DNA of 64,000 nt from an uncultured Gammaproteobacteria bacterium (GTDB lineage: Bacteria > Patescibacteriota > Microgenomatia > CAZXEC01), in NCBI GenBank assembly GCA_964639595.1, contig CAZXEC010000001.1:326903-390902 (forward strand). Direction: 5' to 3'. Under the pieces are notes generated by a model. It saw nothing but the letters and a program-made list of their open reading frames with translations. It did not search any database and was not told the origin of the DNA. The position numbers and the translations under genes were made by a program. Each line of letters starts with the position of its first letter. Position 1 is the first letter of the stretch. Shown one piece after another: positions 7,796 to 51,770 of this stretch.

Positions 7796-7875
7796 AGAAA
7801 GGATCGGATAAACAGACGGTAGCATAGACAACTGTCACAAGCAAGTCAATCTGTTGTAAAATGTCTTAAAATAAG

Positions 7876-10778: not shown

Positions 10779-10806
10779 TAATTTACAAGAAGAGCAGGTC
10801 AATACA

Positions 10807-17070: not shown

Positions 17071-17078
17071 AAATAGAT

Positions 17079-30379: not shown

Positions 30380-31303
30380 ATGAAGTTAATCGTGCAAATA
30401 CCTTGCCATAATGAGGCAGCTACCATTGCCTGGGTTATCAAAGGAATTCCCAGATCCATCAGGGGCATTTCTAAGATAGAGGTTATGGTGATTGATGATG
30501 GTTCAACAGACCAAACCGTAAAAATTGCCAAGAAGGCTGGGGTAGACCACCTGATTTCTAATGAGAGAAAATTAGGTTTGGCTAAAACTTTTTATCTGGG
30601 GCTTGGAAAATGCTTAGAGAAAAATGCTGATATTATCGTTAATACAGATGGCGATAACCAATATGACCAATCACAGATCGTAAATCTGGTAAAACCAATA
30701 CTTGCACGCCAGGCTGATCTGGTGATCGGCAACCGGCAGGTAGAACGATTAAACTGGTTACCAAAAAGCAAAAAAATAGGCAATATTCTTGGCAGCTGGT
30801 TTATAAGAAAGTTAACTGGCACTCAAATAAGAGACGCTTCTAGCGGTTTTAGGGCGTTTTCGCGAGATTGCGCCAAAAATTTTATATCGTTATCCGATTA
30901 TACCTATACTCATGAGACTATTATACAAGCTTATGAGAATGGCCTAAATATAGTTGAAATACCAATCAATTTTCGACCAAGGATCAACGGCCAATCCAGA
31001 CTAATCAATAACACTTTCTGGCATATCCCTAGGTCTGCGCTGGTGATTATCAGGATGGTTTTACTGTACAAAGCTATTAAATTTTTTACTGTCATCGGCG
31101 TATCTACGATAGCAGTTGGGATACTTTTGGTAATCCGTTTTATGTATTATTTTGCAACCAGCGAAGGTAGGGGTCATATTCAGTCTTTAGTGCTTGCCTC
31201 TATTTTTATCAGCGTTGGTTTTAATATCTGGCTGCTGGGTATAATTACAGATGCTATTGCCATAAATCGTAAGTTAATAGAAAGAATAGTCAAAAAAAGA
31301 TAA
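30380..31303 (+). CDS. GT2 polyprenyl-phosphate glycosyltransferase (GtrB/ArnC/DPM1-like, with two C-terminal TM helices)
   Basis: GT2 core (VMVIDDGSTDQT; DGDNQYD) followed by two C-terminal TM helices. This is the classic architecture of lipid-phosphate sugar donor synthases. Confidence 0.7.
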   Translation: MKLIVQIPCHNEAATIAWVIKGIPRSIRGISKIEVMVIDDGSTDQTVKIAKKAGVDHLISNERKLGLAKTFYLGLGKCLEKNADIIVNTDGDNQYDQSQIVNLVKPILARQADLVIGNRQVERLNWLPKSKKIGNILGSWFIRKLTGTQIRDASSGFRAFSRDCAKNFISLSDYTYTHETIIQAYENGLNIVEIPINFRPRINGQSRLINNTFWHIPRSALVIIRMVLLYKAIKFFTVIGVSTIAVGILLVIRFMYYFATSEGRGHIQSLVLASIFISVGFNIWLLGIITDAIAINRKLIERIVKKR

Positions 31304-31970: not shown

Positions 31971-32678
31971 ATGGCCAAAATTCAAGCATCAGTTGTGCTG
32001 CCTACCTATAACGAATCAGGCAATATTATTGGCTTGATAGAGGAGATCAAAAAAGAGTTAACTGCCAAAAGGATTAGTTATGAGATTGTGGTGGTAGACG
32101 ACGATAGCCCTGATAAAACCGGACTTTTGGCTCAGAAATACTTTGCTAAAATTCCTGACGTTAGGGTTATTATTCGCAAGAATGCTAGGGGTTTAGCTAG
32201 CGCTATTCGTCGCGGGATTGAACAATCTGTCGGAGATATCATTGTGGTGATGGATACTGATTTTAACCACGAGCCAAGACTTATTCCCCGTTTGGTGGAA
32301 AAATGTGGCAGATATGACATGGTAGTTGGCTCCAGATTTGTTAAAGGCGGCGGGATGACTAATAAGACGAGAGAAACACTAAGTCGGTTATTTAATATTC
32401 TGATTAGAATAATTTTGGGTAGCCCGGTTCACGACAATTTGAGCGGATTTTTTGCCATAAAAACTAAAGAGCTGGATAAGATCAATTTTGATCAGGTATT
32501 TTGGGGCTACGGTGATTATTTTATCAGGCTGATTTATTTTATAAAAAAGCAAGGCAATACATTTTTCGAGATACCTTCTTATTATAAAGAACGGGAATAC
32601 GGTAGTAGTAAATCTCAATTTTTGCAGATGTTTAGGGATTACTTGGCTTCTACCTTGGCACTTCGGTTTGGGAATTAG
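31971..32678 (+). CDS. GT2, dolichyl/polyprenyl-phosphate mannose synthase (DPM1/Ppm1)-like, soluble
   Basis: SVVLPTYNESGNI..IVVVDDDSPDKT and a DTD motif; 235 aa with no TM segment. Confidence 0.7.
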   Translation: MAKIQASVVLPTYNESGNIIGLIEEIKKELTAKRISYEIVVVDDDSPDKTGLLAQKYFAKIPDVRVIIRKNARGLASAIRRGIEQSVGDIIVVMDTDFNHEPRLIPRLVEKCGRYDMVVGSRFVKGGGMTNKTRETLSRLFNILIRIILGSPVHDNLSGFFAIKTKELDKINFDQVFWGYGDYFIRLIYFIKKQGNTFFEIPSYYKEREYGSSKSQFLQMFRDYLASTLALRFGN

Positions 32679-34864: not shown

Positions 34865-37600
34865 ATGCCGAAGGTAAAAATGAACAAGTTAGATAAACAG
34901 GTCAATAAATCTATAACTTCCCAAAATAAACCTCTGAGGGCTAAAAGCCCTCGGTTTCTCTTTCGAGAAAGCGGTTTGATCACTGCCAAGAATCCATGGT
35001 TTGCGCAAAGTTTGAATCAATTTCTCAAAATAGCTTTGCTACTTTTTGCGGTAGTTTTTTTAGCCTTTTGGCAAACACTGCAGATGTATTTCTGGAAAGA
35101 TGACAGCGCTTTGATGTTTAAAGCCCAAAATCCGCAAGTTGAAGCAGGTTTTTGGGGCAGGGGAATGTTTGGAGAAGGCCCATATAGGCATATACTTGAA
35201 CCATTTGTTTTTTTATACCCAATTTTAGGTCTGGAGCCTACAGGATATTTTGCAGCAGGAATAATTTTCTATTTTCTGGCTGCTTTGTCAGTTTTCTACT
35301 TAGCTAAAGTTATTTTTCAAGATCTTCGATCTGCCATTTTGGCGGCGCTTGTTTTTTCCGCAGGTTATATCGGCTCAGAAACGATCTTTGGCTTGACCAA
35401 TTCACTACAAACCAGTCGGGGTATTGCTATGGCTGCTCTAATGATGGCAGTGTATATCCGCTTTTTGAGAGAAAAACAGATCGTTCTCTACCTCATTTCT
35501 TTACTGTTGTTTTTCTTTACTTTGGATACTGTTTATATCAGATCACATGGCCTGATTTTTACGGTCGTAGCTGCTGATTTATTATTTTCCGGATTTCCGT
35601 TAGATAAAAAAAAGATATTATGGTTTGCGTTAAGAGTTGTCCCATTCCTGGCGATTTTCTACCGTATATATCTGGCGACCGTCTCTGTTAATTTTGCCGC
35701 TTCTGGGGCCCTATCAAATATCTTACAGGGCGATTTTACTCCCGTCACCTCACCGATTATTTCCTTGGGCAATTTATTTTTGCCGGAGCCATGGCTTGAA
35801 GTGGGTAACCAGTGGCTAAAAGCTATTTTCGGCTTTAATGCCAGTTGGTCATTATCAGGTTTGCTGGCAGGTATTCTGTTGTTGATATTGCTGGTGATCT
35901 TAGTTCTATATAATTTTGCCAAGAAAAATAATTACTGGAAGATTACCACGTTTTCATTTGTTTGGATTATTGCCAACGTTTTGTTGTATTTTAGTTTTGA
36001 TACTAAACAAGTCTTAGGATCGTCCCATAGGTATTATTCATATTCATCTGTCGGCTGGGCTATTTTAGTTGCGACAGCTGCTCAAACTGTAGGATATTTA
36101 TTCAAGAGATATCAATTACTGCCCACATATCTGATCATTACCGTGTGCATAGTTTATCTGGCCATAGGCAATCAAATCCAATATGATATTGTGACAAAAA
36201 GGTCACAGCCAGCCAGAAGATTTTTTAATACTCTTAAAAATACCTTGGCTGATATTCCTAAAGGATCACTGGTTTATTTTGACGTGCATCATGATGTGCG
36301 AGTTCAGAGCGAGTTCGGCGATTTTTTTGGTGCGGGATCTATGCCGGAAACTACAGTGCTGGCTATCTATTATGGTCGCGATCGATATGATTTTGAATTG
36401 ACTTATGATTTCAGCCAGGTTGTTAAAGAGCTGTCCCAAAAATCGATCAGTTCAAAACAACTATTCACTTTTTTTTATGACCGCAGTGGACTGGTCAACA
36501 CCACTGATCAAGCCAGACGAGTTTTGTCAGAGGGTTTTAGTAAAAGTATTCCGATTGAGCAGTTATCTGCCAGTACGCAGTTTAATTATAAAGATCATAT
36601 TTTGTCTACCAAGACCAAATTTGAACCAACCCAGACTGGAACCGATCATGTAGATCCGCGGATTGATATCAATTTTAACAGAGAGATAAATTCTATTGCC
36701 GGTGCAACTTTAGAGTTTGATATGGCACTGACCCCGCTTATGCCGAATGGAGTAGTGTTCCCATATGGAGAAAGCCGGTCATCTTTTAGTATATCCGATA
36801 GTCAATTATTACAAACTTTGATGTATTTGAAAGACAGATTAGAGTTTAGAAGATCAGCCCAAGTTATCAGCATGTCTTTTTGGCAGGATCAAGTTCCTCA
36901 AAATTTGAATGATGGCCGTCTTGATACAACTTGGTTGGCTCACCGGGGAGCTTGGAACAGTTGGGTCCAAAAAACATCCATGCAAGCCGAATATGTCATG
37001 GTTGATTTAGGGATGATCAAGTCGGTAGGCAGGCTGATTTGGACCAATGGTCATACAACAAGAACACCTACTCATTATCTTATTTATACTTCAATCAATG
37101 GCGAAAATTGGCAGACGGCTGGTGATATTAAGTTAGAGAGCGCACTGCCCAGCAATCAAGTTTCGGTTGATGATTTCCCAGAAAGGCTTGCGAGGTTTGT
37201 TAAGATGGAGATTATTGATTCATCAGGAGGAGATGCTCCCCAACTGGCAGAGATTGAAGTGGTGGCTGGCAAATATAAAAATATAGATTTAAATTTAGCT
37301 CATAAACTATCAATTTCCCCGTTTGCTTCCATCGGAGATTTATCGCAATGGTCTTTGGCGCTGGCCTGGGCTGCTGACAATATAAGTGCGCAGATATGGT
37401 GGAAATCCAACAAAGATCTATCTTGGAATCAAACTAGCTACCAAGACTTTCCTGTAATTGCTGATGGCAGATTTTACCACTATCGCCTCGATATACCAGC
37501 CGGCGGAACTGTTTTGGAAGCAGTTAGACTGGATAAGATTTCTATACCGGTTGAGGTAAAAATCAAAAATGTTAAAATGCTGACCGATCCGCTTCCATGA
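34865..37600 (+). CDS. Large GT-C-like membrane glycosyltransferase fused to a C-terminal F5/8 type C (discoidin) domain; paralog A1
   Basis: About 11 TM helices, with YFWKDDSALMF (a DD motif) in the first loop. A long soluble region contains the F5/8-C hallmark DGRLDTTW...W...VDLG...IW.NGHTTRTPTHY..TSINGENW...AEIEVV. Confidence 0.6.
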   Translation: MPKVKMNKLDKQVNKSITSQNKPLRAKSPRFLFRESGLITAKNPWFAQSLNQFLKIALLLFAVVFLAFWQTLQMYFWKDDSALMFKAQNPQVEAGFWGRGMFGEGPYRHILEPFVFLYPILGLEPTGYFAAGIIFYFLAALSVFYLAKVIFQDLRSAILAALVFSAGYIGSETIFGLTNSLQTSRGIAMAALMMAVYIRFLREKQIVLYLISLLLFFFTLDTVYIRSHGLIFTVVAADLLFSGFPLDKKKILWFALRVVPFLAIFYRIYLATVSVNFAASGALSNILQGDFTPVTSPIISLGNLFLPEPWLEVGNQWLKAIFGFNASWSLSGLLAGILLLILLVILVLYNFAKKNNYWKITTFSFVWIIANVLLYFSFDTKQVLGSSHRYYSYSSVGWAILVATAAQTVGYLFKRYQLLPTYLIITVCIVYLAIGNQIQYDIVTKRSQPARRFFNTLKNTLADIPKGSLVYFDVHHDVRVQSEFGDFFGAGSMPETTVLAIYYGRDRYDFELTYDFSQVVKELSQKSISSKQLFTFFYDRSGLVNTTDQARRVLSEGFSKSIPIEQLSASTQFNYKDHILSTKTKFEPTQTGTDHVDPRIDINFNREINSIAGATLEFDMALTPLMPNGVVFPYGESRSSFSISDSQLLQTLMYLKDRLEFRRSAQVISMSFWQDQVPQNLNDGRLDTTWLAHRGAWNSWVQKTSMQAEYVMVDLGMIKSVGRLIWTNGHTTRTPTHYLIYTSINGENWQTAGDIKLESALPSNQVSVDDFPERLARFVKMEIIDSSGGDAPQLAEIEVVAGKYKNIDLNLAHKLSISPFASIGDLSQWSLALAWAADNISAQIWWKSNKDLSWNQTSYQDFPVIADGRFYHYRLDIPAGGTVLEAVRLDKISIPVEVKIKNVKMLTDPLP

Positions 37601-40455
37601 AATATAAAGCCTTGCTTGTTTTGCTTTTGGCATTGGTAGTGTTTCTTACTTATGGTACAACTCTTAAGATGTATTTCTGGGAGGATGATAATGGCTATAT
37701 TTTCAAACTACAGAACCCTTATGTTGAGGCAGGTCCCTATGGTCCTGACCTTATTGGGTCGGGACCATATAAATACCAAGCCACTTTTGCTTTTCCGTTC
37801 TACCAATTTTTTCAATTAAACCCGGTAGGATATTTTGCCTATGGACTAGTGATGTATTTTTTGGCATCACTTTCAGTATATTTCCTGGCAGTAAATTTTT
37901 TACGCAATAGGCGATCAGCTTACATGGCGGCTTTGATTTTTGCATCTGGATTAGTTGGAGCAGAGAGCTTATTCCGCATCACCAATACTTATCAGACTAG
38001 TGCTGCAATTATTCTGGCTAGTCTTTCGTTCGGCTATCTTTTTAGAAATCTTTATTATGGCGGAGTATCCAATTATTTGCTGTCAGTTTTATTTTTCCTG
38101 CTGGCTGTTGAACTTGTTCAAATCAGGTCCCATGGATTAGTATTTTCAGCTGTAATGGCAATTTTGCTATTCTCGCAATTTTGGAAAAATATTAAACAGT
38201 TACCCATTACCGCGATTAAAATCTTTCCATTTCTGTTTATTTTTAATAAATACTATCTTTACTTAGGTAGCAGTAATAGTACGGTTGGGTCTGAAGGATC
38301 AAGGTTTATCGGTGACCTCCTTTATAATGGGCATTTCGAATATGTTTTTACTATTCTTTCAATTTTTTCCAATTTATTGCTGCCAGATCTAGTAGTTGTG
38401 GAAATCAACAGGATTTTATCAGCCAAGTTACCCTTTGTTGACGGTAAACTTTTCCTTGCCAGTTTGCTGATAATCATATTTTGGCTATTTTTATATTTTG
38501 AAAAATTAATCTTTTCGTCATCCCGAAAAGTTTTTGCATTGATTTTATCGATTAGTCTTTTTTGGTATGTTATATGTTTTTTGGCCCAGTTTAATAATTA
38601 CCAGTTTTTTCAGGACCAATTTAATATGGTACAGGTCTTGATTGGTGGACTGTTTTTTATTAACGTAGCGTATCTGGTGTTGCTTAGTGTTTACAAAAAT
38701 GATGATGCTGGGAAAAAAATAGTATTTTGTATCCTCTGGGTAGGTTTTTCATTTTTGGCTTTTTTGGTACATTCTCCACTGAATGTTTTGTCTAGCACCC
38801 ATCGCTACTTATCTGTATCTTTGGTGGGGTGGTCGATTTTCTTGGCTTTTTTGCTGACCTTGATTGTTAAGTTTGCTAGGCAAAAGATAAGCAGGAGGAC
38901 TTTTTTTAACAGATTGCTGCTGGCAGGAAATAAATTTACAATTTTAGGTTTAGGGTTTATTTTGACTACCAATATTTGGCTTAATTCTAGTCTGCAGACT
39001 AGAATAGTTGACGACCGTAGTATTCCAACTGCCGACTTTTTCTCATCACTGCAGAAGGTTTTACCGAAAGTAAGCAAAGGCGATGTGTTCTTTTTTAATG
39101 TCCAAAATGATGATTTAATGAGTAGTCGATTTAAAAATTTTTTTGCTGTTGCTTCTATGCCGCCAACCACCGCTTTGGCCATCTATTATCGCCTAGATAG
39201 GTATGATATTAAATTATTGCCAATTTTTGATGAACTGGCTAGTCTTGTTGCTGCGGGTCAGGCCGGCCTTCATCAGATTCATACTTTTTCTTATGATCGT
39301 CATGGCCTTTTGGACACTACTGGCACAACAACTGCCGCTCTTGGCTTTGGCGGACAAACCCAATTAAAAATTAATACCACCAGCCAAACCCAATACAAAA
39401 AAATAAACGAGGTAATTGTTGGTTACACACCGCCCTTGATAATTAATCTAGAAAAACCAATTATCGCTGCGTCCCCCCTAGAGGTAACTTTGTCAGTAAA
39501 ATTAGATGTTGATTATGGCGTATCTTATGGTCAATATCATCAAACTAATAAGATGGATGATTTATCACAGCTGGTCGAATTAAAAAATATCCAGACAAGA
39601 CCGTTATCTAATTTAGATCGACAGCTGATCTTTAATTATTTAATCGCCAAAAAAGACTATCAAAAGAATTCTAAAGCGCAATCGTCAAGCAGCTGGAAAT
39701 ACCATGAAATAGACAACATTAACGATGGCAGGCAAGAGACTGACTGGCTGTCCCATGTAGGCAAGTGGCATGAATTGCCGTATGAGGAAATAGTAATTGA
39801 TTTGGGAAAGATAAAAAATATTTCCAGAGTAGTTTGGGTTAATGGCTATCCTCAAAGAACTCCAACAGTATATCAAATCGAAGTGTCGGCGGATCGGACC
39901 AACTGGCCCCGACTCAATCGGGGCTGGCAAAAAGTGGTAAGTATCAACCAAACTGCCATGTCTCTTGGGGCAATAAAGCAAGATAACTTTGCCCCTCATT
40001 TTGCCAGATACGTCAAGATGGCAATTTCGGCAACAGCCGGAGACTCTCCTCAAATTGCCGAGATGGAAGTGGTAGAAGAGAAATTTAGGCAGGTTGACTT
40101 AGACCGGGCAAAAGAACTAGCTACGACGCCTTTTATGTTGGGTAATCAGGAAGATTTTATCCTGGCTGATAGTTTTGCCAGAAACGGCCACCACAGCGCT
40201 AAAATTTATTGGAAGTCGCCAGAGGATTCGGATTGGAAGAATACCCAGTCAACCTCTGCAGCAGTTTATGCAGATAGTAAGTGGCATGACTATTCTGTGA
40301 TAATTCCTGTTGATGGAGCAAGGCGTATTAGCCAGATCAAAATTGATAATCTGATGTTTCCTGCACGAGCCCATCTGACTGGCATCTCCTTTAGATATTT
40401 AACTTTGTCAGATTTAATAAGCAGAGGACTGATCCGTCAATTTAATGACAACTAG
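37597..40455 (+). CDS. Large GT-C-like membrane glycosyltransferase with C-terminal discoidin domain; paralog A2 (divergent)
   Basis: MYFWEDDNGYIF loop motif. The F5/8-C block reads DGRQETDW...IDLG...VW.NGYPQRTPTVY...AEMEVV. ATGA overlap with A1. Confidence 0.6.
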   Translation: MKYKALLVLLLALVVFLTYGTTLKMYFWEDDNGYIFKLQNPYVEAGPYGPDLIGSGPYKYQATFAFPFYQFFQLNPVGYFAYGLVMYFLASLSVYFLAVNFLRNRRSAYMAALIFASGLVGAESLFRITNTYQTSAAIILASLSFGYLFRNLYYGGVSNYLLSVLFFLLAVELVQIRSHGLVFSAVMAILLFSQFWKNIKQLPITAIKIFPFLFIFNKYYLYLGSSNSTVGSEGSRFIGDLLYNGHFEYVFTILSIFSNLLLPDLVVVEINRILSAKLPFVDGKLFLASLLIIIFWLFLYFEKLIFSSSRKVFALILSISLFWYVICFLAQFNNYQFFQDQFNMVQVLIGGLFFINVAYLVLLSVYKNDDAGKKIVFCILWVGFSFLAFLVHSPLNVLSSTHRYLSVSLVGWSIFLAFLLTLIVKFARQKISRRTFFNRLLLAGNKFTILGLGFILTTNIWLNSSLQTRIVDDRSIPTADFFSSLQKVLPKVSKGDVFFFNVQNDDLMSSRFKNFFAVASMPPTTALAIYYRLDRYDIKLLPIFDELASLVAAGQAGLHQIHTFSYDRHGLLDTTGTTTAALGFGGQTQLKINTTSQTQYKKINEVIVGYTPPLIINLEKPIIAASPLEVTLSVKLDVDYGVSYGQYHQTNKMDDLSQLVELKNIQTRPLSNLDRQLIFNYLIAKKDYQKNSKAQSSSSWKYHEIDNINDGRQETDWLSHVGKWHELPYEEIVIDLGKIKNISRVVWVNGYPQRTPTVYQIEVSADRTNWPRLNRGWQKVVSINQTAMSLGAIKQDNFAPHFARYVKMAISATAGDSPQIAEMEVVEEKFRQVDLDRAKELATTPFMLGNQEDFILADSFARNGHHSAKIYWKSPEDSDWKNTQSTSAAVYADSKWHDYSVIIPVDGARRISQIKIDNLMFPARAHLTGISFRYLTLSDLISRGLIRQFNDN

Positions 40456-40462
40456 CAGGAGT

Positions 40463-41569
40463 TTAATGATCAGCCGAGTTATTGCTTGCCACTGTTTGTT
40501 GATAAGGGATAATAGCGCTGGATACTGGTTGACCGATAATTTCACTGTAACGTTGTTTGCCTTTGATGTAATACTGCCATAGAATGCTAAAAGGTGATAA
40601 TTCTTTCTCGGCAATACCGATGGGCACATTTCTGTGGAAACGCCGGTAGTTAATAGTGTTCTTTAGCCGCTTTGCAAAAGACAGATGAGCCAGTATAACC
40701 GACCAAACAAAATAGATATCTCCGGAGAGCGTATAGTAGACAGCGCTAACCAAGTCCAGTAAGAATCGTGCTGGTAGCACCCATATCAAACTGGTCAGGG
40801 TCATATTACGGGCAGCCAACAGTAGCGCGTTGCGGTGAACGTAGAAGATTCGTTTTTGTAGTTCTCTTTTTGATCTGCGGGATGAACCAGCCCCTTTGTG
40901 ATAGATAAGAGATCTAGGTACAAAGACAATGCGATAACCGGCATCTTTGAGTCTCCAACATAAATCGGTCTCTTCATGATAGAAAAAAAAATCTGTAGGC
41001 AACAGGCCATATTTAAGACCAATATCGCGCCGGAGCAAAAAAGCAGCACCAGAGGCCCAAAAAATATCAACCTCATCATCATATTGTCCTATGTCTTCCT
41101 CCAGGGAAAAACCAACCCGGCCTCTGGCATAAGGATATCCCAGTCGATCAATAAAACCACCGGCAGCTCCGGCGTAATCAAAGAAATTTTTGTTATAGAG
41201 AGAATGAATTTTACCCTGACAAACAGCAATTTTGGGATCAGACAGAGCAGCAGCAATTAAAGGTTCCAGCCAGTTGGGATCGACCTCGGTGTCATTATTG
41301 AGCAGGACGACAAATGGTGTTTTTATCTCGCGAATAATAATGTTATTTGCCCCGGCAAAACCTAAATTTTGCCCCAAAGCCCTCCAGGTAATTCTCGGAT
41401 CAGCAAATTCTGCCTGCAGGCTTGCCAGCTCATTTTCTTGCGAACCATTATCTATCACAATAACATTGAAGTGTTGGTAATTGGTTTTAAGAACTGAATT
41501 TAAGCAAATTCTGGTATCGGCAAGGCCATTAAAGTTGATAATAATAATGGAAACAGCAGCAGGCTTCAT
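40463..41569 (-). CDS. Glycosyltransferase family 2 (rhamnosyltransferase-like)
   Basis: VSIIIINFNGLADT..VIVIDNGSQ, and NNDT. Resembles 19626..20669. Confidence 0.75.
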   Translation of the reverse strand: MKPAAVSIIIINFNGLADTRICLNSVLKTNYQHFNVIVIDNGSQENELASLQAEFADPRITWRALGQNLGFAGANNIIIREIKTPFVVLLNNDTEVDPNWLEPLIAAALSDPKIAVCQGKIHSLYNKNFFDYAGAAGGFIDRLGYPYARGRVGFSLEEDIGQYDDEVDIFWASGAAFLLRRDIGLKYGLLPTDFFFYHEETDLCWRLKDAGYRIVFVPRSLIYHKGAGSSRRSKRELQKRIFYVHRNALLLAARNMTLTSLIWVLPARFLLDLVSAVYYTLSGDIYFVWSVILAHLSFAKRLKNTINYRRFHRNVPIGIAEKELSPFSILWQYYIKGKQRYSEIIGQPVSSAIIPYQQTVASNNSADH

Positions 41570-42233
41570 ATAGGATTTTTACATATAGCGATCAAATCTA
41601 TGGCTTGAGAGGTTTTGGTATTGATGGAATAATCATTCTCGCCAATATGATAAGTTTTGTTACCCTTATGAAGAATACTGCGTGTTAAATATGTTACAAT
41701 ATCACCAGCAAATTGCCTGATTGGCCGGGGTAGTAATTTCCTCAAGTTGAAGATGTCGCCTTTGAGTATTTTCAACACCATCTTTTTCCTGGCTTCTCCA
41801 TAAGTTGTAACTGTGGCATTCCCCCAAAGGCCATAAATAAACACCTCTTGAAAAAAGGCAGAAAGGAGCTGATACCATTCATCTGGTGTATATTCCTTGT
41901 AATGATAAGGATTTTCATTATAAGATTGGGTAATAGCGTTAGGTGTGGAGAAAATAGCCACACCATTTTTTGTAAGAGAGACCTCACTTTATCAAAAAAT
42001 ACTTGTGCATTGGGGAAATGCTCTATTGTTTGTAGGGCAATTATTACTTCAAATAGCGTATCAAAACTGCTTTGAATAAATTCCCACCATTCAAATTGTA
42101 AATTACCAGGTTGTCCTTTAAGACGCTTTGCTGCCTTGATAGCCAGTTGGGTAAAAGTGGGCATCAGAGCAGTATTATTGATGTCGGTTCTTTCCGCACT
42201 GATAGTGTAAAAAAATTGTTCAGGCCCAAGCAT
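41566..42233 (-). pseudogene. Frameshifted, 5'-truncated remnant of a class I SAM methyltransferase
   Basis: Two overlapping minus-strand ORFs sit in different frames (41772..42233 and 41566..41961). The upstream one carries FDTLFEVIIALQTIEHFPNAQVFFDKV, matching the post-motif-II region of an MTase. The downstream frame continues with TKNGVAIFSTPN (GG-like). No GxGxG motif I is present and there is no room for one upstream. Confidence 0.45.
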
Positions 42234-42315
42234 GTTAGGAGAATTATAGCATAGAGATGTTTTGCAGGTTTGAAAAATGTTAGCTGTGATGGTAGATTAG
42301 GTGATAGCTACTAGG

Positions 42316-44988
42316 ATGCACATCAATAATGCAGAGAAAATAGCCAGAGCTCTTGCTTTCTTATCTGCTCTGGGGAAGATAGGCAAATCTTGGATTGCTG
42401 GCCATCAATTGTTAAGCGTGGCAATACTGCTTGCCTTTTTGGTATTTTTGGCATACGGCCAGACCCTAGAGATGTATTTTTGGAAAGACGACAGCGCTTT
42501 AATGTTTAAGGCCCAGCACCCGCAAGAAGATGCCGGTTTTTGGGGAAAAGGGATTTTTGGCGAAGGCCCATATCGTCATATTGCCGAGCCCTTTGTCGTG
42601 TTATATTCGATATTCGGTCTTGAGCCGACCGGCTATTTCGTCATCGGCTTAATATTTTACCTCTTGGCAGCATTTTCAGTTTATTTTCTAGCATTGACGC
42701 TTTTTAGAAAAAAGTTACCCGCCCTGCTGGCTGCCTCGTTATTTGCTGCCGGCTACATTGCTTCAGATAGCATTTATGGATTAACCAATTCTTTGCAGAC
42801 CAGCCGCGGTATTGTGATGTTATCCTGGCTGGTTATTTTCTTTGCACGTTATCTTAGAGAAAATAAATTCCTGTTCTATATTGCCTCACTTCTTTTGTTT
42901 TTCTTCACTCTGGATACGGTTTTTATCCGTTCACACGGTGTCATATTTGTGATAGTAGCAGCCGATATTTTTTTTACCTACCAAGGATTGTCCAGAAAAT
43001 GGCTAAGCGGCATCTTGTGGCGCCAACTGCCATTTTTGCTTATTTTCTACAAAATATATCTTGAGACAAACCAGCATAGTTTGTCGGCAGGCCAGTCGCT
43101 ATTTAGCTTATTACAGGGTGATTTCACCATAGTTATGTCAGGGCTGGTTTCTTTTGGCAATTTATTGGTGCCAGAAGTATTTCTACAACAGTTAGGTAAA
43201 TTATTTAATGTCAATTCCACTCAACCATTGGCAGAAATGATTTCCGGCGTGGTGTTTGCTGGTATTTTGATAGCCTCTATTATTATCTTTAGATTAAAAA
43301 AACAGGACGAGAATGTTCGCCTGCTACTTTTTTGTATTGCCTGGATTGTCGGTAATGTAGTATTGTATTTTGCTTTTGATGCTAAGCAAGTTTTGGGATC
43401 AACCCACAGGTACTATGCTTATTCGGCTGTAGGATTTGCTCTGCTGGTGGGTTTATTATCTTATAGTTTGTCCAAGATGTTTTTGGGTAATTCTTTACTA
43501 AAAACATTGCTGCCGGTCGTTATTGTCGGCTGTTTTATATTAACCTATCTGGTAATTGAACGCGGGGTCCAGCGTTCAATTATTAACAAGCAGGCCCAAC
43601 CTGCCAAAGTTTTCTTTAAGACCCTGAAAACTGCAGTACCGCATTTACCAAAAGGGGCAATAGTATATTTTGATGTTGCCAACAGTGCCCAAGTGCAAAA
43701 TCAATTTGCCCAGTTTTTTGGTGCCGGTTCCATGCCGGAGAGTACGGTTATTGCCATCTATTATGGGCTTGATCGTTATGATTTGATACTGACTTATTCT
43801 TTTGATGATATCGCAAAAAAATTGCGGGATCAGACGATCACACTGGATAAGATTTATACATTTTACTATGATGGCATACGACTCCATGACACTACCAAAA
43901 GCGCCCGCCAACAACTGACTACTTTCCAAGAGGTTGACCTACCTTTAACATCAATCGGTGCTAATGTGCCGATCAGTTTAGAGCCCGACATGATGATTGC
44001 TACACAGCTTACCAGGGATGGCGATAAGACAATAGGGGAAAATCCGGAAATTATCATCACTTTTGATAAAAAAGCACCATCGGTAACACCACAAATACTG
44101 GAGGTGACCATGGCCCTGACTGTAAAATCACTATCAGATGCGCTTTTGCCATACCAAGATAGCAGTGCTAGTCAAGAGGTTAATGTAGGAGACACAGAAC
44201 AGGTTTTCGCATATTTGATAAATCAATCAGAGTACTTGCGTACGGTTTCTATACATACTACCAGTTCTTGGCAAGACCAAATTACCGCTAATTTGGCAGA
44301 TGGCAGAATTGAAACCAATTGGATGGTCAACAGGGTATCCTGGAATGAATGGGTACATGGCGATAAACAAAAAGAACAGTCAATAGTTCTTGATCTGGGT
44401 AGTCCAAAAAATATCAGTAAAATTATTTGGACTAATGGCCATACTGTCAGAACTCCTACCAGCTATTCCATTTTTACTTCACTAGACCAAGGCGACTGGC
44501 AGGCAGCCAAAACAATATCAGCTGGCCCAGTTCGCGCCACTAACGCTGTTTGGCAGGACGATTTCTTACCGCGTCGGGCACGTTTTGTCAAAATCAACAT
44601 TACCCAAAGCTCGGGGGGCGATTCTCCCCAGGTGGCTGAATTGGCGGTAGTTGAAGATCAATTTAAAAATGTTGACTCAACTGTTGCCAGTCAACTGGCC
44701 AAAACACCTTTTTCAGCAATTAGTAATCAGACTCAATGGGGCCAGGCATGGCGCTATATCAGCCAAAACGGACAACTGCGCTGGCGATGGAAAAAGGATA
44801 AGGATTCTGGCTGGGACACGGTAAATTATCAGTACTTTCCCATCTTTGTTGATAGACAATTTCACACGTATAACCTAGCGATTCCAGCTGGCGGTTTGTA
44901 TTTGGATCAGGTGATGATTGATAATTTCAATTTTCCAGCGACTGTTTTTATTCAATCTGTTAAAATAGCCAACCAACAGCGGTATTGA
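42316..44988 (+). CDS. Large GT-C-like membrane glycosyltransferase with C-terminal discoidin domain; paralog A3
   Basis: The N-terminus is ~65% identical to A1 (YFWKDDSALMFKAQHPQ...GEGPYRHI). The F5/8-C block reads DGRIETNW...LDLG...IW.NGHTVRTPTSY...AELAVV. Alternative GTG start at 42301. Confidence 0.6.
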   Translation: MHINNAEKIARALAFLSALGKIGKSWIAGHQLLSVAILLAFLVFLAYGQTLEMYFWKDDSALMFKAQHPQEDAGFWGKGIFGEGPYRHIAEPFVVLYSIFGLEPTGYFVIGLIFYLLAAFSVYFLALTLFRKKLPALLAASLFAAGYIASDSIYGLTNSLQTSRGIVMLSWLVIFFARYLRENKFLFYIASLLLFFFTLDTVFIRSHGVIFVIVAADIFFTYQGLSRKWLSGILWRQLPFLLIFYKIYLETNQHSLSAGQSLFSLLQGDFTIVMSGLVSFGNLLVPEVFLQQLGKLFNVNSTQPLAEMISGVVFAGILIASIIIFRLKKQDENVRLLLFCIAWIVGNVVLYFAFDAKQVLGSTHRYYAYSAVGFALLVGLLSYSLSKMFLGNSLLKTLLPVVIVGCFILTYLVIERGVQRSIINKQAQPAKVFFKTLKTAVPHLPKGAIVYFDVANSAQVQNQFAQFFGAGSMPESTVIAIYYGLDRYDLILTYSFDDIAKKLRDQTITLDKIYTFYYDGIRLHDTTKSARQQLTTFQEVDLPLTSIGANVPISLEPDMMIATQLTRDGDKTIGENPEIIITFDKKAPSVTPQILEVTMALTVKSLSDALLPYQDSSASQEVNVGDTEQVFAYLINQSEYLRTVSIHTTSSWQDQITANLADGRIETNWMVNRVSWNEWVHGDKQKEQSIVLDLGSPKNISKIIWTNGHTVRTPTSYSIFTSLDQGDWQAAKTISAGPVRATNAVWQDDFLPRRARFVKINITQSSGGDSPQVAELAVVEDQFKNVDSTVASQLAKTPFSAISNQTQWGQAWRYISQNGQLRWRWKKDKDSGWDTVNYQYFPIFVDRQFHTYNLAIPAGGLYLDQVMIDNFNFPATVFIQSVKIANQQRY

Positions 44989-45076: not shown

Positions 45077-48046
45077 ATGAATCTAAAACATACCATTGTC
45101 TTGGCCGTTTTTGCTTTACCAGCTTTAGTTTGGTGGTTTGCACCTGGCTATGTAGTTGATGGAACTGACATCACCTTTCCATTGAATCCCCAGATTGCTC
45201 TTCAGAGATCATTCTATGCTTGGGATAACATTGATAATGCCGGTAGTTACCAAACCGCGATTCAGCTCAACCTAGCCAGACAACCCATTCACTTATTCTT
45301 GAGCTTTCTACAGATAACTGGTTTATCTATTGGTGATATTTCCAAGATATGGTATTTCACATTACTCTTCTTATCCGGAGTTGCTTTCTATTTTTTTATT
45401 GATCAATTGAGGCAATGGATTACCGCCTACAAGATACATCCTCTGTTTTGCGCCCTGTTTTATATGTATAACCCATATTTTATGCAACTAATTTCTGATC
45501 AGGCCATAATGCTCACCTACGTCTCTGTGCCACTTCTTGCCGGATTTTGTCTGCATGCTCTACGAAGGAGAAAAATATTTCCCGATATGCTTTGGATTGG
45601 AATGACTTGGTTCTTTTATTCTCCTGTTAACCCTAACTCCTTTGCTTCAGGCCTGTTGCTTTGGATGATGATTCTAATTGTAGCCAGCTATCATCTTTGG
45701 CGAAGCGCAAACCAAGAAACAATCCGATTCGCAAAAATTTTCTACATCGTCCTGGCTGCCACCACCATTGTTGTTAATGCTCGTGTTATCTTACCTTATT
45801 ACCAGTATTTGTCTAGTGATTTGGCAATTATCCAACAGACTTCCAAAGATTGGCTATCCGGTGTGAGCAAAAATACGACTTTTCCCAAAAGCGCACAGTT
45901 GATCGGAGCGTGGGATTGGTTTGAAAATTTTAATGGTGAAGCTTATGCGCCTTATGCTGCTTGGTATCAGGAGTTTTTTGTCAAGCTACTGGGAGTCTTA
46001 CTCCCTCTCTTGGTGGTGTTGGCGATAGTAATTGCCAGAGATAAATTTACTTGGTTTTTCGCAGGAGTAGCAGTGGCCGGTGTTATTCTTTCTACTGGTA
46101 CCCATCCTCCTTTCGGGTTTGTCTATCAGTTTCTATATGATCATGTTCCTGGGTTTTGGATTTTTCGCTCCCCCTGGTACAAGTTTAGTTTTTGGGTAGT
46201 TTTCTCATATGCTTTTTTCTTTGGCAAATTTACCACCAGCATAATTCAAAAACTGGGATCAAAACAAGTTAGGTTGGTTGATGTTTTAGTTTGGAATAAA
46301 AGAGCTTTGACCTACGCATTAGTTTATGGCGGAATTATCTGGTATGTAATTCTTTACTCCTGGCCTTTGTTTAATGGTTGGAGATTTACCAGGCCAGAAG
46401 AAAGGAAGGGTAATCTGCCGGCTACACAAGTAAAAATACCTGCTTATGTTTTTCAGACAGCAGATTTCATTAATAAACAACAAGAGGAGGGATCCATTAT
46501 ATTTTTGCCGCAAGTTGAACTTAATTATTCCATATATTTTTGGGGATATGGTAATTTGCAACCGCCGCTATTTTACTTACTGAATAAAAACCAGATTATA
46601 TATCTACCATTTGATAACCAAGTGGCCATCACGCAAAACTTATTGCAATTTAAGAAATATTTCTATCATGACTTACAATATCAAGCCCAAAAATTTGCTA
46701 ATTTAACATCAGCAAAATTTATAATTTTGCAAAAGGATTTTAATTATCAGCCATTTAAAGTTAATGAGGACAAACAATTCTTTCAAACTCGGCTAGACTC
46801 CAGTCGAATTTTTGAAAAAATTGCCAGTTTTGATGAATGGATTATCTACAAGAATCCTCAAGCTCTACCACCACTTTATGGAAATAGGTTTATTGTAGTG
46901 CCAGACAAACTGCCCAGCTTAGCAAATATTACCGCCGATGGGTTAGTCTACGCTCACCAAAATCAGCTACCATCGGATACTGTTAACGCCATAAAAACCA
47001 ATAGTCAGAATGTAGATCTATCTCAATTTCAACTGGCGGGAGATCAACTTATTAAATCTTTCCAGTTTGATAATCCCCAAGTAGCTGTTGTTGAGTCTAT
47101 TAAAACAAGTGAAACAAAACTATTGGTGAACGATAGCCCGTATACAATATCTGCTGATAATAAAGTTGATGTTGCCAGGCTACCTGTAGGTAATAACACA
47201 GTCTCAATCCCTGTCCGGCTATCAGAGAATATGGTAAAAAATCCTAATTTTAATTCAGGCCTCGATAACTGGGAATTGGCCAACTTATCTGAAGATATTA
47301 GCGCTAATATGAAAAAACACTTCCAGGCGGCACCAGGGCAGTTTACCCTATATTCAAGCGGAAAGAACTTGGGGATTTTCCAATATGTCAAAAAGGACGA
47401 TAAGACGCAAGTATATTCGATTTCGTTTGAATTTAACAAACAAGATCGCTCTGCCTCTAGGGTAGTATTATATGATGATATTCAGGGTGAGTTGGTAGCT
47501 GATGTTTTGCCATCTGGCAATATCTGGCAATCTTACCAAAAGCTGATCAAACTAGACCCGACAACAAAGAAATTTTCCATCAACTTCTTTGCCGCTACTG
47601 GACAAGAGTCAACGATTTTAGTTAGGAATGTCCGAATAAGAAAGGTCATAACGCCAATTATCTCATTGCAATTCTATCCACAATCTCAATGGGATAGTAT
47701 ACAAAAACTAGCCAGCCAGCCAGCCCCCGAGATAACAATCAACAGCCAAGATAAGACTGCAGTTGATTTTAATGTTCAATCTGATGGACCTATCTATTTA
47801 GTTTTCAACCAAACGTACCATCCGCTATGGAGACTATCTGGTAATTACCCTGATTATGCTGACCATTTTGTAGCCAATGGCTTTAGTAATGGATATTATC
47901 TAGCTAAAGCTGGGAATTATCACCTCAAACTGGAATTTGTTGGGCAGGCTAATTTGATTTTGGGCTGGCAGATTACGATTGTAGGCAGTTTTGCTTTACT
48001 TGCTATTTATCTAGTGCAAGCCGTAAAATCAAAACACATTATATAG
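45077..48046 (+). CDS. Giant YfhO/AftD(DUF3367)-like GT-C membrane protein; paralog B1
   Basis: N-terminal TM helix then DGTDITFPLNP. About 12 TM helices and a large extracytoplasmic region. The C-terminal hallmark YHPLWRLSGNYPDYADHFVANGFSNGYYLAKAGNYHLKLEF..(TM) resembles the YfhO C-terminus. Confidence 0.6.
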   Translation: MNLKHTIVLAVFALPALVWWFAPGYVVDGTDITFPLNPQIALQRSFYAWDNIDNAGSYQTAIQLNLARQPIHLFLSFLQITGLSIGDISKIWYFTLLFLSGVAFYFFIDQLRQWITAYKIHPLFCALFYMYNPYFMQLISDQAIMLTYVSVPLLAGFCLHALRRRKIFPDMLWIGMTWFFYSPVNPNSFASGLLLWMMILIVASYHLWRSANQETIRFAKIFYIVLAATTIVVNARVILPYYQYLSSDLAIIQQTSKDWLSGVSKNTTFPKSAQLIGAWDWFENFNGEAYAPYAAWYQEFFVKLLGVLLPLLVVLAIVIARDKFTWFFAGVAVAGVILSTGTHPPFGFVYQFLYDHVPGFWIFRSPWYKFSFWVVFSYAFFFGKFTTSIIQKLGSKQVRLVDVLVWNKRALTYALVYGGIIWYVILYSWPLFNGWRFTRPEERKGNLPATQVKIPAYVFQTADFINKQQEEGSIIFLPQVELNYSIYFWGYGNLQPPLFYLLNKNQIIYLPFDNQVAITQNLLQFKKYFYHDLQYQAQKFANLTSAKFIILQKDFNYQPFKVNEDKQFFQTRLDSSRIFEKIASFDEWIIYKNPQALPPLYGNRFIVVPDKLPSLANITADGLVYAHQNQLPSDTVNAIKTNSQNVDLSQFQLAGDQLIKSFQFDNPQVAVVESIKTSETKLLVNDSPYTISADNKVDVARLPVGNNTVSIPVRLSENMVKNPNFNSGLDNWELANLSEDISANMKKHFQAAPGQFTLYSSGKNLGIFQYVKKDDKTQVYSISFEFNKQDRSASRVVLYDDIQGELVADVLPSGNIWQSYQKLIKLDPTTKKFSINFFAATGQESTILVRNVRIRKVITPIISLQFYPQSQWDSIQKLASQPAPEITINSQDKTAVDFNVQSDGPIYLVFNQTYHPLWRLSGNYPDYADHFVANGFSNGYYLAKAGNYHLKLEFVGQANLILGWQITIVGSFALLAIYLVQAVKSKHII

Positions 48047-48062
48047 TAAGTTCGTTTTCCAG

Positions 48063-48105
48063 CCAGGTGTCAGCCCTGGTTTTGTGTATTTTGGCAGTAG
48101 CTGCC
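48063..48105 (+). terminator. Weak hairpin plus T-run after B1, followed by a second short hairpin
   Basis: CCAGG-tgtcagc-CCTGG-TTTTGTGTATTTTGG, then GGCAG-tag-CTGCC. This is the only sizeable intergenic gap in the B array. Confidence 0.25.
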
Positions 48106-48138
48106 CCATGTTGGATGTATTAATTGACCATAGAAAAT

Positions 48139-51100
48139 ATGAGAAAAGTTTTTAATCAAATCAGAAGATTTTGGGAGCTGGTTATCGTTTTTCTTTTCGG
48201 ACTGACGCCCGTTTTATGGTACAAGGGTGAAAGCTTGATCAATGGCGTTGATACTAATTTCCCCCTTGATCCTCTATCGTGGTGGCAAAGACGGTTTTTT
48301 GTCTGGGATGATACATTATATGGCGGGTCTGACTGGTCTTCTAATTTGGCTGGCATCTTCTTTCATGGTCTGCAAGTATTCTTTTATGAGGTGATCAGAT
48401 TTTCCCTGCAAAATACTGAAAAAGCCACCACTGTTTTCTGGTTTACCCTAATTTGTTTATCTATTTATATTCTTTTCAGAACTTTTCAAAAATCCCATTC
48501 TGGTCTTGTCAGAATTGTTCCGGTCGCCTTGTATGCCTATAATGTTTATTTATTTAACACTTGGGAAAATATTAAAGTTACTAATTTATCATTGATGGCA
48601 GCCCTGCCTCTGGCTCTTGCCGTAGTCAACCTATTTTTCAAAAACAGACTGTCGTTAATTGTTTGCCTGGTGCTACTTGGCGGAATATCGCTCATAGGTT
48701 CTGGAATGGGGATTAATCCTGCCTATCTGGCAGTATATTTGTCAACGTTAGTTGCCTTTGGCGTTTATATGGCTTTGGCAAACCACTATCAGAAGAGATG
48801 GGTGGTTGCATATGCAGCCATGTTTGTAGCAGCCGTATTAATAATTAATGCCTATTGGATTTTACCGCTCACCTTTAATCTGTTTGGTTGGGGGGGGACA
48901 CCGTTGCTTTCAGAGATAGGCCAGATTAATGCTGTGGATTGGATAGATGGACTGTCAGCTCACACTTCAATTTTTAATTTATTCAGGTTGTTGGGGGCAT
49001 GGGATTGGTATGGAGAAAGCTCGCCTGGCGTGCCGTATATACCTTATGCTTATAATTATTTCTCCAACCCAGTTTTTATATTTTTTGGCATCCTTATACC
49101 AATTTTGGGATTTTCATCTCTGCTGTTTTCAAGGCTAAGACGGGAAATAGTGTTTTTCAATCTGCTAGTATTAATCGGACTGTTTTTGTCAGCTGGAACC
49201 CATCCCCCAACTGGCAGATTTTTTAAAGTCTTATTAGATGCAGTGCCCTTCTTCTCATTTTTTAGGAGTCCTTGGTATATCTTTACTCCCATAGTTCTTT
49301 TGGGCTTGGCCATGTCGATTGGTTTACTTTTTGATCAACTTCTATATACGGCTAAGGGCAAATTTTGGCAGTGGAGACTGATTAAGCTTCCCCAAAGAAT
49401 AGCTTTATCTTTATTGATGTTGGTTTTTGTAATCTTTAATGTTTTATATTGCTATCCTTTGGTTAGCGGTGAGGTTTTTCGAGCCGGGACTCCGGGAAGT
49501 GTGCTAGTTAACATTCCCAATTATGTACTGGACACTCGAGATTTTTTGAATAGTCTTCCCAAAGACAAACGGATCATTTCTCTGCCATATACAACAAGTG
49601 AACATTTCAATTGGGAATATAAGGGGATCGCTTCCATATTAAATTTGCTCGCTCCTGTTAACGTGCTGACTTATAATTTTGCCAGTGCCAAAAATGACGC
49701 CATAGGCATACTGACTGATGAACTTTATAGAGCTATCCACTTTGGTGAAGTAGAAAATATTAAAAAACTGGCAGGACCGTTAAATGTGGAGTATTTGTAC
49801 AACAAAAATGATACCACTGACTTTGACAGTTCACCTCTATCACATCAAGTAGCCCAACAGATAGCAGATGCACCATTGCCTGCCAGTTTTGGTTTGTGGG
49901 ATTTTTGGAAGATTAAAGATCAATTTGTCTGGCCAAGGATTTTTGTTCCATCAAAAACAATATTTTCAGCAGAAGACGATGTTGGGCTGGTGAAAGATCT
50001 CTTGAGCATGACTGATGGATATCAGCCAAAACTTATCGCAAAAAGTAAATTAGACAAGCTAGCCAATGGCTGGATTAAGGCTTACCGTCAAGATGAGAGA
50101 ATAAGCTATTTATCACCAGATTTTAAAAATCGGGGGGTTTTTGAATATAGTAATTTGGAATTTAATCAAAATTTGGCAGTTTTTGATGTTAAGGTACCCA
50201 GAGATGGTCAATATCAACTCTATGTGGAGAAAGACCAGTTGGGAAGCTATGGCCTAGGATCGGGAAAACCCTGGGATATAATAATAGATAAGTATACCCT
50301 CTTAGAGAAGATGTATAAACTTAAAGTAGAAAAGTCAGATGTTAGATTTTTAGCACTGGAAAAATTTTTTCTATCAGAAGGTGGGCATACGATATCGATT
50401 AATCTGCCCAATAATTTCAATTATTTTGAAAATTATAAATTCGAAAGAATTGTCTTATCAACTGGTGAACTGGTTGGCCAATCAAAGGAAGAGTTTGAAA
50501 AGATGCCTTTTGCTAAGGTCAATTTAACGGTACGCTTAGGTGTTAGCCTTCCTGATATTAATTCAAAATCAATGTATCAAATTAGTTTGTTTGACCCAAC
50601 CCAGACAGCCTTGTCACGGGTGGTGATTGTTTCACAACAAATTCCCGAAAGAAATGTCATGTACTATCAGGTATCTACCAAGGACTATATCAGTTGGCCT
50701 TATACCAGACTCGTGATCAGACCGCTTTATTATCCGTCTATCTTAAATGTTGCTATTGATGATAATGGTAACAATATGCAATTTTTATCAAATCCAGCCA
50801 AAGAAATACAAGTGCATAGGATATTCACGAATAGCGTGATTTTAAAACCTGTCGGTGATGAATTGACAACGTCGCATGACTTGCCCCAAAATCCGCAAGT
50901 TAAATATGAGAAGCTGTCTCCAACTAAATATTTGGTGTCTATTGATAACGTTGACAGAAATACACCATTGGTTCTACAAGATAAGTTTTCACCGTCCTGG
51001 AAAGTCTACAGGAATGACGACAATGGCTATAATCTTTGGGCAACATGGGGCAAAAAGCCGATTTTGGAGAATAACCACCAGATTGCTAATGGTTACGGCA

Positions 51101-51607: not shown

Positions 51608-51770
51608 ACTAGCCAATTTTTGCCTACTGGTCAGTTTCACATTATTGCTGGTGGCTTTTGCATCTATTCTTGGCAACCATCCAGGATTTGCTAATCAGGT
51701 AGTTGAGAAAAGCTATCTAGTTTTATTAAGTGCTATTGTGTTGAAGTTTGCATTAAATTTTTTGTTATGA
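51597..51770 (+). CDS. Unlisted small two-helix hydrophobic ORF (~57 aa), translationally coupled on both sides
   Basis: The ATG overlaps the TAG of the upstream gene (ATGCTAAATAG). The product MLNRLANFCLLVSFTLLLVAFASILG...YLVLLSAIVLKFALNFLL ends in a TGA that overlaps the B3 start (TTATGA). It falls below the ORF-track length cutoff. Coordinates are approximate (±3). Confidence 0.3.
   Translation: MLNRLANFCLLVSFTLLLVAFASILGNHPGFANQVVEKSYLVLLSAIVLKFALNFLL

Follow-up and report, generated by a model that had tools for sequence, protein, structure and literature searches.

Three paralogous membrane proteins combining a predicted GT-C fold with a CBM32-type lectin domain in a glycan island of an uncultured bacterium

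Introduction

Lectin-bearing glycosyltransferases of the GT-C fold are established, since EmbC (PMC3044687) and AftD (bioRxiv 10.1101/2019.12.22.885152) carry carbohydrate-binding modules (CBMs). EmbA, EmbB and EmbC are polytopic GT-C paralogs with 13 transmembrane (TM) helices; their DDx motif is strictly conserved, and a lectin-like CBM in the hydrophilic domain at their C-terminus binds the acceptor (PMC3044687). Their genes lie side by side, and their donor, in Actinobacteria, is decaprenyl-phosphate arabinose. AftD (PDB 6w98) has three CBMs of other types, with which it is proposed to hold its acceptor; five further helices at its C-terminus return to the membrane, and it interacts with an acyl carrier protein (bioRxiv 10.1101/2019.12.22.885152). 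Here we describe three paralogous proteins, A1, A2 and A3, encoded in a 64-kb stretch of contig CAZXEC010000001.1 from an uncultured bacterium (hereafter the window), which join a GT-C-like membrane domain to a discoidin (F5/8 type C, CBM32) domain. A sequence-only reading of the window had called such a fusion unusual; in view of EmbC and AftD this was overstated, and what may be new in an acceptor-binding role is only the CBM32 type of module.

The three proteins share with the Emb proteins the polytopic membrane domain (13 helices in A2), the acidic pair, the lectin-bearing C-terminal region and the side-by-side arrangement of paralogs. They differ from them in that no sequence similarity was detected, that the DD pair of the Emb proteins lies in a differently numbered loop (E2), and that the Emb CBM does not belong to the CBM32 fold family. 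Unlike AftD, they end in a soluble beta-sandwich, carry a single CBM32 domain and do not match the Pfam model GT-C_AftD. Nor do they match the Pfam models of PMT (GT39) and PMT_2/ArnT (GT83); PMT proteins have a beta-trefoil MIR domain inserted in a loop, whereas A1-A3 carry a CBM32-type lectin within a C-terminal soluble region of about 450 residues. The solved CBM32 modules that match theirs (e.g. those of Clostridium perfringens GH84C and NanJ) are only 17-21% identical and sit on glycoside hydrolases, lyases, sialidases or peptidases, or stand alone, whereas here the module sits on a probable membrane glycosyltransferase. A full-text literature search, which included the candidate phyla radiation and Patescibacteria, found no publication on a GT-C protein with a discoidin/CBM32 domain, and no database record that we found gives proteins of the A1-A3 type a name.

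Results

Predicted fold and topology of the membrane domain

We think it likely that A1, A2 and A3 are GT-C-fold glycosyltransferases of an undescribed family, which would use a polyprenyl-phosphate sugar as donor and a glycan, held by a C-terminal stalk, as acceptor. What the analysis shows directly is the fold seen in the models, which motifs occur and how far they are conserved, the pattern of topology, how the domains and the neighbouring genes are arranged, and how the family is distributed (coordinates in Table 1). AlphaFold2 models of A1 and A2, built on family alignments, reached a mean predicted local distance difference test (pLDDT) score of 84.4 and a predicted TM-score (pTM) of 0.71 for A1, and of 89.0 and 0.85 for A2. 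In both, the helical membrane domain leads into a long stalk helix, after which come a mixed alpha/beta domain, a first beta-sandwich, one helix, the discoidin jelly roll and, last, another beta-sandwich. A1 and A3 have 11 TM helices and A2 has 13, the extra two being absent from A1 and A3; both numbers lie within the 8-13 helices of the GT-C superfamily. The counts for A1 and A2 were taken from the models, crude hydropathy counting being too noisy alone.

The membrane parts of both models resembled solved GT-C enzymes. That of A1 scored 18.7 against Pmt4, 18.4 against Pmt2, 17.7 against STT3B, 17.4 against ALG12, 16.0 against AglB, 15.7 against AftA, 15.4 against PglB, 14.0 against AftB, 13.6 against ArnT and 13.3 against AftD. 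For A2 the scores were 20.3 (Pmt4), 17.8 (Pmt2), 17.7 (STT3B), 16.3 (AftA and ArnT), 16.2 (AglB) and 15.8 (PglB). Among whole-chain matches, Foldseek ranked mycobacterial AftD first (E 4e-8); next came CBM32 modules, at a TM-score of 0.82. The sequence-only reading had proposed a polytopic N-domain with GT-C relatives, and the models bear this out.

The orientation of A1 is indicated by its N-terminal tail, with 11 Lys/Arg among 49 residues, and by short Lys/Arg-rich loops at 242-250, 353-357 and 413-418, which mark the inner face and so place loops 74-124, 224-229, 271-329 and 379-393, as well as the entire C-terminal region, outside. The N-terminal tail of A1 is missing from A2 and is 30 residues shorter in the A1 orthologue of L007, a locus from a second genome.

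We class A1-A3 as a separate, undescribed GT-C family and not as members of PMT, PMT_2 or AftD, because they do not match the sequence models of these three families and the predicted structures contain neither a MIR domain nor a C-terminal membrane re-entry. No match was obtained at E <= 0.1 with the PMT and PMT_2 models (PF02366, PF13231), nor any with GT-C_AftD (PF11847), whereas the neighbouring gene product of 48124-51267 matches the latter (E 5.7e-9). Pfam detected no MIR domain in A1-A3 and no beta-trefoil is inserted in the loops of the models, both of which end in a soluble beta-sandwich where AftD has TM12-16. When the membrane domain of A1 or A2 was searched by itself, Pfam gave no match even at E <= 10. 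A profile-profile comparison of the family with the six PMT_2-type GT-C proteins of the window gave a match with 79.6% probability and an E value of 1.5e-5.

Putative active site

Members of the GT-C superfamily carry a conserved acidic motif of the DxD or DDx type in one of the loops outside the cytoplasm, with hydrophobic residues after it (PMC5836110, PMC3044687). In A1, A2 and A3 alike, MYFW(K/E)DD stands directly after the first membrane helix; the sequence-only reading had noted YFW(K/E)DD in the first loop. Conservation was counted in 59 family representatives that are 24-43% identical to A1 (most of them 24-33%). Position 79 is Asp in 56 of 58 relatives and Glu in the other two, and position 80 is Asp in all 58. 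Lys86 is kept in 55 representatives and position 108 is Arg or Lys in 56; Tyr107 and Arg226 are invariant, Arg389 is found in 59 of 59 and Tyr390 in 58 of 59. All eight positions lie in outer loops. In the profile-profile alignment, the DD pair of the family falls onto the first-loop DD of the PMT_2-type paralogs in the window; an attempt to link the motif equivalence through a PMT protein of the window gave nothing useful.

Three hallmarks have been described for the GT-C/PMT clan: a DD or DE pair in the loop after TM1 (D55/E56 in ArnT, D77/E78 in Pmt1, D281/D282 in Emb), a basic residue that opens the second helix in this loop (K85 in ArnT), and a strictly conserved Arg with a Tyr before TM10, which binds the donor phosphate (R375 in PglB, R459 in STT3B) (PMC7801869). 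Residues of the right kind appear to occupy all three equivalent positions in the family. By analogy with these hallmarks, D79 and D80 may be catalytic. R389 and Y390 sit in the loop between TM9 and TM10, and their match to PglB R375 and STT3B R459 (PMC7801869) was judged by topology only.

A discoidin/CBM32 module within the soluble region

The soluble region of all three proteins contains a domain that scores above the gathering threshold (28.2) of the Pfam model F5_F8_type_C (PF00754), with 45.3, 45.7 and 41.9 bits for A1, A2 and A3 and E values of 1e-10 to 1e-12. In the models this domain is a jelly roll that superimposes on the solved CBM32 modules mentioned above. The predicted discoidin fold thus held, and the proposed signature did so in part. 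DGRxxTxW is present in all three paralogs; VDLG is exact only in A1 (IDLG in A2, LDLG in A3), NGHTxRTPTxY is found in A1 and A3 and reads NGYPQRTPTVY in A2, and AE(I/M)EVV, present in A1 and A2, is AELAVV in A3. The domain does lie in the C-terminal soluble region, though not at its very end, as a beta-sandwich of about 105 residues comes after it.

Among the paralogs the discoidin domains are 40-46% identical. The lectin domain of A2 differs by 6-residue indels in two stretches between conserved blocks, one after DGRxxTxW and one before a conserved WQ; the NG(H/Y)xxRTPT and GDxPQ stretches are conserved. The first beta-sandwich is the most divergent part (14-20% identity, or 12-27% with the linker). 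Neither the alpha/beta domain with the first beta-sandwich nor the C-terminal beta-sandwich had a Pfam or NCBIfam match, and a sequence comparison of the discoidin domain with the PDB yielded only weak matches to neuropilin b1 (E ~1e-3).

Family size and distribution

A word-indexed search retrieved only 21 relatives, whereas an exhaustive search with a profile of the membrane half retrieved 2240 representatives at E <= 1e-3, 571 at E <= 1e-10 and 287 at E <= 1e-30, most of them 800-950 residues long. The family therefore comprises at least 287 clusters (50% identity) at E <= 1e-30. Among 59 sampled members, 48 have an F5_F8_type_C domain, four match PMT_2 weakly, four match the third CBM of AftD weakly, and two have an N-terminal GT2 domain. 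The three named genome matches are metagenome-assembled genomes of Candidatus Daviesbacteria and Candidatus Woesebacteria, both from the candidate phyla radiation, and one labelled as Gammaproteobacteria. The latter (locus L006, CAYTZB010000001.1, 'uncultured Gammaproteobacteria') holds a tandem of an A1-type and an A2-type gene whose products are 34% and 28% identical to the window proteins. Since the other named matches are all from Daviesbacteria and Woesebacteria, its label may be wrong.

A conserved gene pair and a later third copy

The three open reading frames announced by the sequence-only reading are present and intact. Its size range of 895-952 residues is right at the upper end (A2), but A3 has 890 residues from its ATG and reaches 895 only with the GTG at 42301; this longer product is not on record as such, and a near-identical version of 890 residues is (P0005). 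Pairwise BLASTP gave 44% identity between A1 and A3 over 888 residues, 31% between A1 and A2 over 940, and 31% between A2 and A3 over 611, which agrees with the description of A2 as divergent. The figure of about 65% given for the N-termini of A1 and A3 was fair, the identity being 61.5% over residues 56-260 and 71.6% over residues 56-150.

In L007, the orthologues of A1, A2 and A3 (78%, 83% and 79% identical) stand in the same order as in the window, namely A1, A2, a GT2 gene and a methyltransferase gene on the minus strand, A3 and an AftD-like gene, with neighbouring genes 70-91% identical. Because all three orthologues are intact and syntenic, the paralog set is far beyond chance, and the idea of chance or pseudogene paralogs was ruled out. 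The first outer loops of A1 and A3 are 82% identical. We considered the possibility that gene conversion caused this likeness and rejected it: among identical residues, only 50% of third codon positions are identical, so the likeness reflects selection rather than recent conversion. A scan for promoters and terminators was uninformative, with counts near those expected from shuffled sequence.

The tandem of an A1-type gene and an A2-type gene that overlaps it by 4 nucleotides was seen four times: in the window, in L007, in L006 and on an ENA contig that encodes P0003 and P0014. In the ENA contig a gene of about 990 residues directly follows the pair and the third copy is absent. Because the pair recurs in L006 and in this contig, the latter without a third copy, the overlapping pair is what has been conserved as a unit, and A3, which arose later by duplication of the A1 type, is together with its two neighbours on the minus strand an addition specific to the lineage.

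This arrangement raised the question whether the A1-type and A2-type proteins form an obligate heteromeric enzyme, as Pmt1-Pmt2 and EmbA-EmbB do, with A3 as an alternative partner. Besides the tandem in four loci, this would be in line with the consistent difference of the two types by two TM helices and a conserved C-terminal tail motif, and with the presence of Pmt2 from the Pmt1-Pmt2 complex (6p2r) among the nearest solved folds. Yet neither type lacks any of the putative catalytic residues, and several relatives (L008, L009) occur as single copies. We regard an obligate heteromer as a tentative possibility at best; as it concerns assembly and not chemistry, it is compatible with a role of A1-A3 as lipid-donor-dependent glycosyltransferases.

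Gene context and candidate donor supply

Two GT2 genes that are candidates for polyprenyl-phosphate sugar synthases lie 2-4 kb upstream of A1. The first of them is the window's closest match to the GT2 genes found directly upstream of family members elsewhere. In the distant relatives L008 and L009, an AglJ/DPM/PpgS-like GT2 gene of about 250 codons is start/stop-coupled directly upstream of the family gene, and in P0128 and P0165 such a GT2 is fused to the N-terminus of the family protein. The GT2 domains nearby, adjacent or fused to family members are DPM1/ArnC/AglJ-like, and their coupling and fusion tie donor synthesis to the GT-C protein in the manner of a Rosetta stone. Systems such as CsbB-YfhO, GtrB-GtrA-Gtr and PgfS-PgfM similarly combine a GT2 polyprenyl-phosphate sugar synthase with a GT-C enzyme acting outside the membrane (PMC5836110, PMC11127046). 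A1-A3 differ from these in belonging to another GT-C sequence family and in their much larger, lectin-bearing ectodomain.

The window is a 64-kb glycan island with nucleotide-sugar enzymes, two DegT aminotransferases, GT2 and GT4 genes and a Wzx-like flippase. Its modification genes comprise two carbamoyltransferases, a GNAT gene and ten intact methyltransferase genes plus a decayed one. Because carbamoyltransferases, many S-adenosylmethionine (SAM)-dependent methyltransferases, a GNAT and an AlgX-like SGNH protein are present, the glycan of the island is probably heavily O-methylated, carbamoylated and acylated. The decayed methyltransferase gene has lost 45 residues, including the SAM-binding VLEIGCGAGYG, and has a frameshift (the frames overlap at 41772-41961).

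The density of GT-C-like polytopic genes, about a dozen in 64 kb including A1-A3, is unusual. Two of these genes are clearly AftD-like and one is weakly related, and six are of the PMT_2 type; an assignment of 59737-61179 as a further PMT_2-type GT-C was unsupported. In L009, a gene with FAD_binding_4 and ALO domains, which runs off the locus, lies a few genes downstream of the family member, and none was seen in the window. We take this domain pair to be that of DprE1-type decaprenylphosphoryl-ribose oxidases, which hints at pentofuranose donors in the L009 organism.

Table 1. Positions of the features discussed (in the window unless another locus is named)
Feature	Coordinates	Strand	Length or residues	Remarks
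A1	34865..37600	+	911 aa	predicted GT-C-fold membrane domain and four-part extracytoplasmic region
A1 N-terminal tail	34865..34993		aa 1-43	K/R-rich, cytoplasmic, disordered (pLDDT <50)
A1 membrane domain	34994..36244	+	aa 44-460	11 TM helices, N-terminus inside
A1 D79-D80	35099..35104	+		proposed catalytic acidic pair, start of first outer-loop helix; DD kept in 56-58 of 58 relatives
A1 R389-Y390	36029..36034	+		outer loop just before TM10; putative donor-phosphate binding
A1 alpha/beta domain (461-556) and first beta-sandwich (557-630)	36245..36754	+	aa 461-630	secondary structure of the model
A1 discoidin/CBM32 domain	36857..37267	+	aa 665-801	
A1 C-terminal beta-sandwich	37268..37585	+	aa 802-907	from the model
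A2	37597..40455	+	952 aa	divergent paralog, layout as A1; start overlaps A1 stop by 4 nt
A2 D30-D31 (DD motif)	37684..37689	+		invariant in the alignment
A2 two extra TM helices	38443..38592	+	aa 283-332	alignment insertion; model helices 283-306 and 310-332
A2 discoidin/CBM32 domain	39673..40077	+	aa 693-827	
A2-type C-terminal tail	40399..40452		aa 935-952	conserved L(S/T)LxELxxRGLI(K/R)xFxxN; short helix in the model
GT2 between A2 and A3	40463..41569	-	368 aa	Pfam Glycos_transf_2, E 1.3e-23; L007 orthologue 85% identical
Methyltransferase pseudogene	41566..42233	-		translations; tblastn with intact 267 aa L007 orthologue (16589-17392)
A3	42316..44988	+	890 aa from ATG	A1-type paralog; alternative GTG start at 42301; L007 orthologue ~79% identical
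A3 D58-D59 (DD motif)	42487..42492	+		from the sequence
A3 discoidin/CBM32 domain	44245..44655	+	~aa 644-780	Pfam E 1.4e-10; alignment to A1
Two AftD-like GT-C genes	45077..51267 (45077-48046, 48124-51267)	+	989 and 1047 aa	directly downstream of A3; 26% identical to each other; in related loci the pair is followed by a gene of ~990 aa
Weakly AftD-related gene	51767-54439			
GT2, candidate polyprenyl-phosphate sugar synthase (donor supply)	30380..31303	+	307 aa	NCBIfam best: AglJ, dolichyl-P hexose transferase, PpgS, below curated cut-offs
GT2, second candidate polyprenyl-phosphate sugar synthase	31971..32678	+	235 aa	NCBIfam best: ArnC, PgfS, AglJ, below cut-offs
PMT_2-type genes	2933-4588; 28724-30328	-		
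PMT_2-type genes	7876-10029; 10807-12996; 57319-58710; 61978-63444			
Carbamoyltransferase	17834..19636	+		
Carbamoyltransferase	26597..28303	-		
Intact methyltransferase genes (examples)	4595-5473; 10029-10778; 17022-17837; 31305-31919; 33219-34070; 34016-34861; 56498-57322			
GNAT	32681-33274			
AlgX-like SGNH protein	25425-26615			
L008, GT2 and family gene	7249-8001; 8001-10688			
L009, GT2 and family gene	7190-7996; 8001-10814			
L009, FAD_binding_4 + ALO gene	18184..18814			runs off the locus

Discussion

Catalysis, the type of donor, the acceptor and the role of each residue are inferred from the observations above. A1, A2 and A3 would be seated in the cytoplasmic membrane with the N-terminus inside and the active site on the outer face. 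D79 and D80, at the start of the first outer loop, would serve as base, as metal ligand or as both; Y107 with R/K108, where the second loop helix begins, and R226 with H228 would complete the site, and R389-Y390, in front of TM10, would bind the phosphate of the donor. As donor, the proteins would use a polyprenyl-phosphate sugar that the two DPM1/ArnC-like GT2 enzymes encoded upstream of A1 would produce on the inner face and that would next be flipped to the outside. The sugar would pass to an extracellular glycan, which could be a surface polysaccharide or be part of a glycoprotein. The C-terminal stalk, formed by the alpha/beta domain, the first beta-sandwich, the CBM32/discoidin domain and the last beta-sandwich, would hold this acceptor in the way in which arabinan is bound by the CBM of EmbC and, as proposed, by those of AftD.

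With the same chemistry and another acceptor, A1-A3 could be protein O-glycosyltransferases of the PMT kind, which would take the sugar from its polyprenyl-phosphate carrier and attach it to Ser/Thr residues of proteins that are secreted or displayed on the surface (S-layer, pili). The part of the lectin-like MIR domain of PMTs would then fall to the discoidin domain. The closeness of the models to Pmt4 and Pmt2 would suit such enzymes, and the PMT sequence models and the MIR domain were both sought in A1-A3 and not found; we hold this alternative to be unlikely.

Several points weigh against a role as GT-C glycosyltransferases acting on glycans. No Pfam or NCBIfam model matches the membrane domain in full-length A1-A3, and a family profile of the N-terminal half found no match among PDB sequences at E <= 10, so that the GT-C assignment is based on structure predictions and a single moderate match between profiles. 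The equivalence of the active-site positions is topological, not geometric. All assignments of GT2 proteins as donor synthases are below curated cut-offs, and no GtrA-like small flippase, such as that of the GtrB-GtrA-Gtr system, is evident beside the A1-A3 genes. Finally, F5/8 type C domains may also bind lipids or proteins, which makes carbohydrate binding putative here. The missing match to any curated GT-C sequence model might even suggest that A1-A3 are not transferases but membrane-anchored lectins, scaffolds or glycan-handling proteins (polymerase- or ligase-like, or sensors) that retained a GT-C-like helix bundle, yet this is very improbable, as the acidic pair and the Arg/Tyr at hallmark positions are near-invariant across relatives of 24-33% identity, as expected of a working active site, and GT2 donor-synthase-like genes are recurrently coupled or fused to family members.

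If A1-A3 are indeed glycosyltransferases with a lipid-linked donor, a more far-reaching and rather doubtful proposal would be that the A1/A2-type heteromer, together with the AftD-like and PMT_2-like neighbours, forms an extracytoplasmic line, driven by lipid donors, that builds a complex, methylated and carbamoylated surface polysaccharide in the candidate phyla radiation. Such a line would stand as an independent counterpart to the arabinan machinery of mycobacteria, and the proteins would found a new CAZy GT family with CBM32 as acceptor clamp or ruler.

These findings overturn nothing, since this class of enzyme and this class of lectin were already established, as was the idea of joining the two; we consider the findings useful rather than surprising, and of moderate interest. 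They define a sizeable, unnamed GT-C family with a clear putative active-site signature and a built-in CBM32 domain, and would bring CBM32 into the small set of acceptor-binding modules that occur on GT-C enzymes. They also offer glycobiologists concrete targets, namely the soluble lectin domain, point mutants and the gene pair. To our knowledge, the bacteria of the candidate phyla radiation have not been cultured, and next to nothing is known of the chemistry of their cell surfaces, through which they probably attach to hosts. A1, A2 and A3 probably help to build the surface glycan of an uncultured bacterium.

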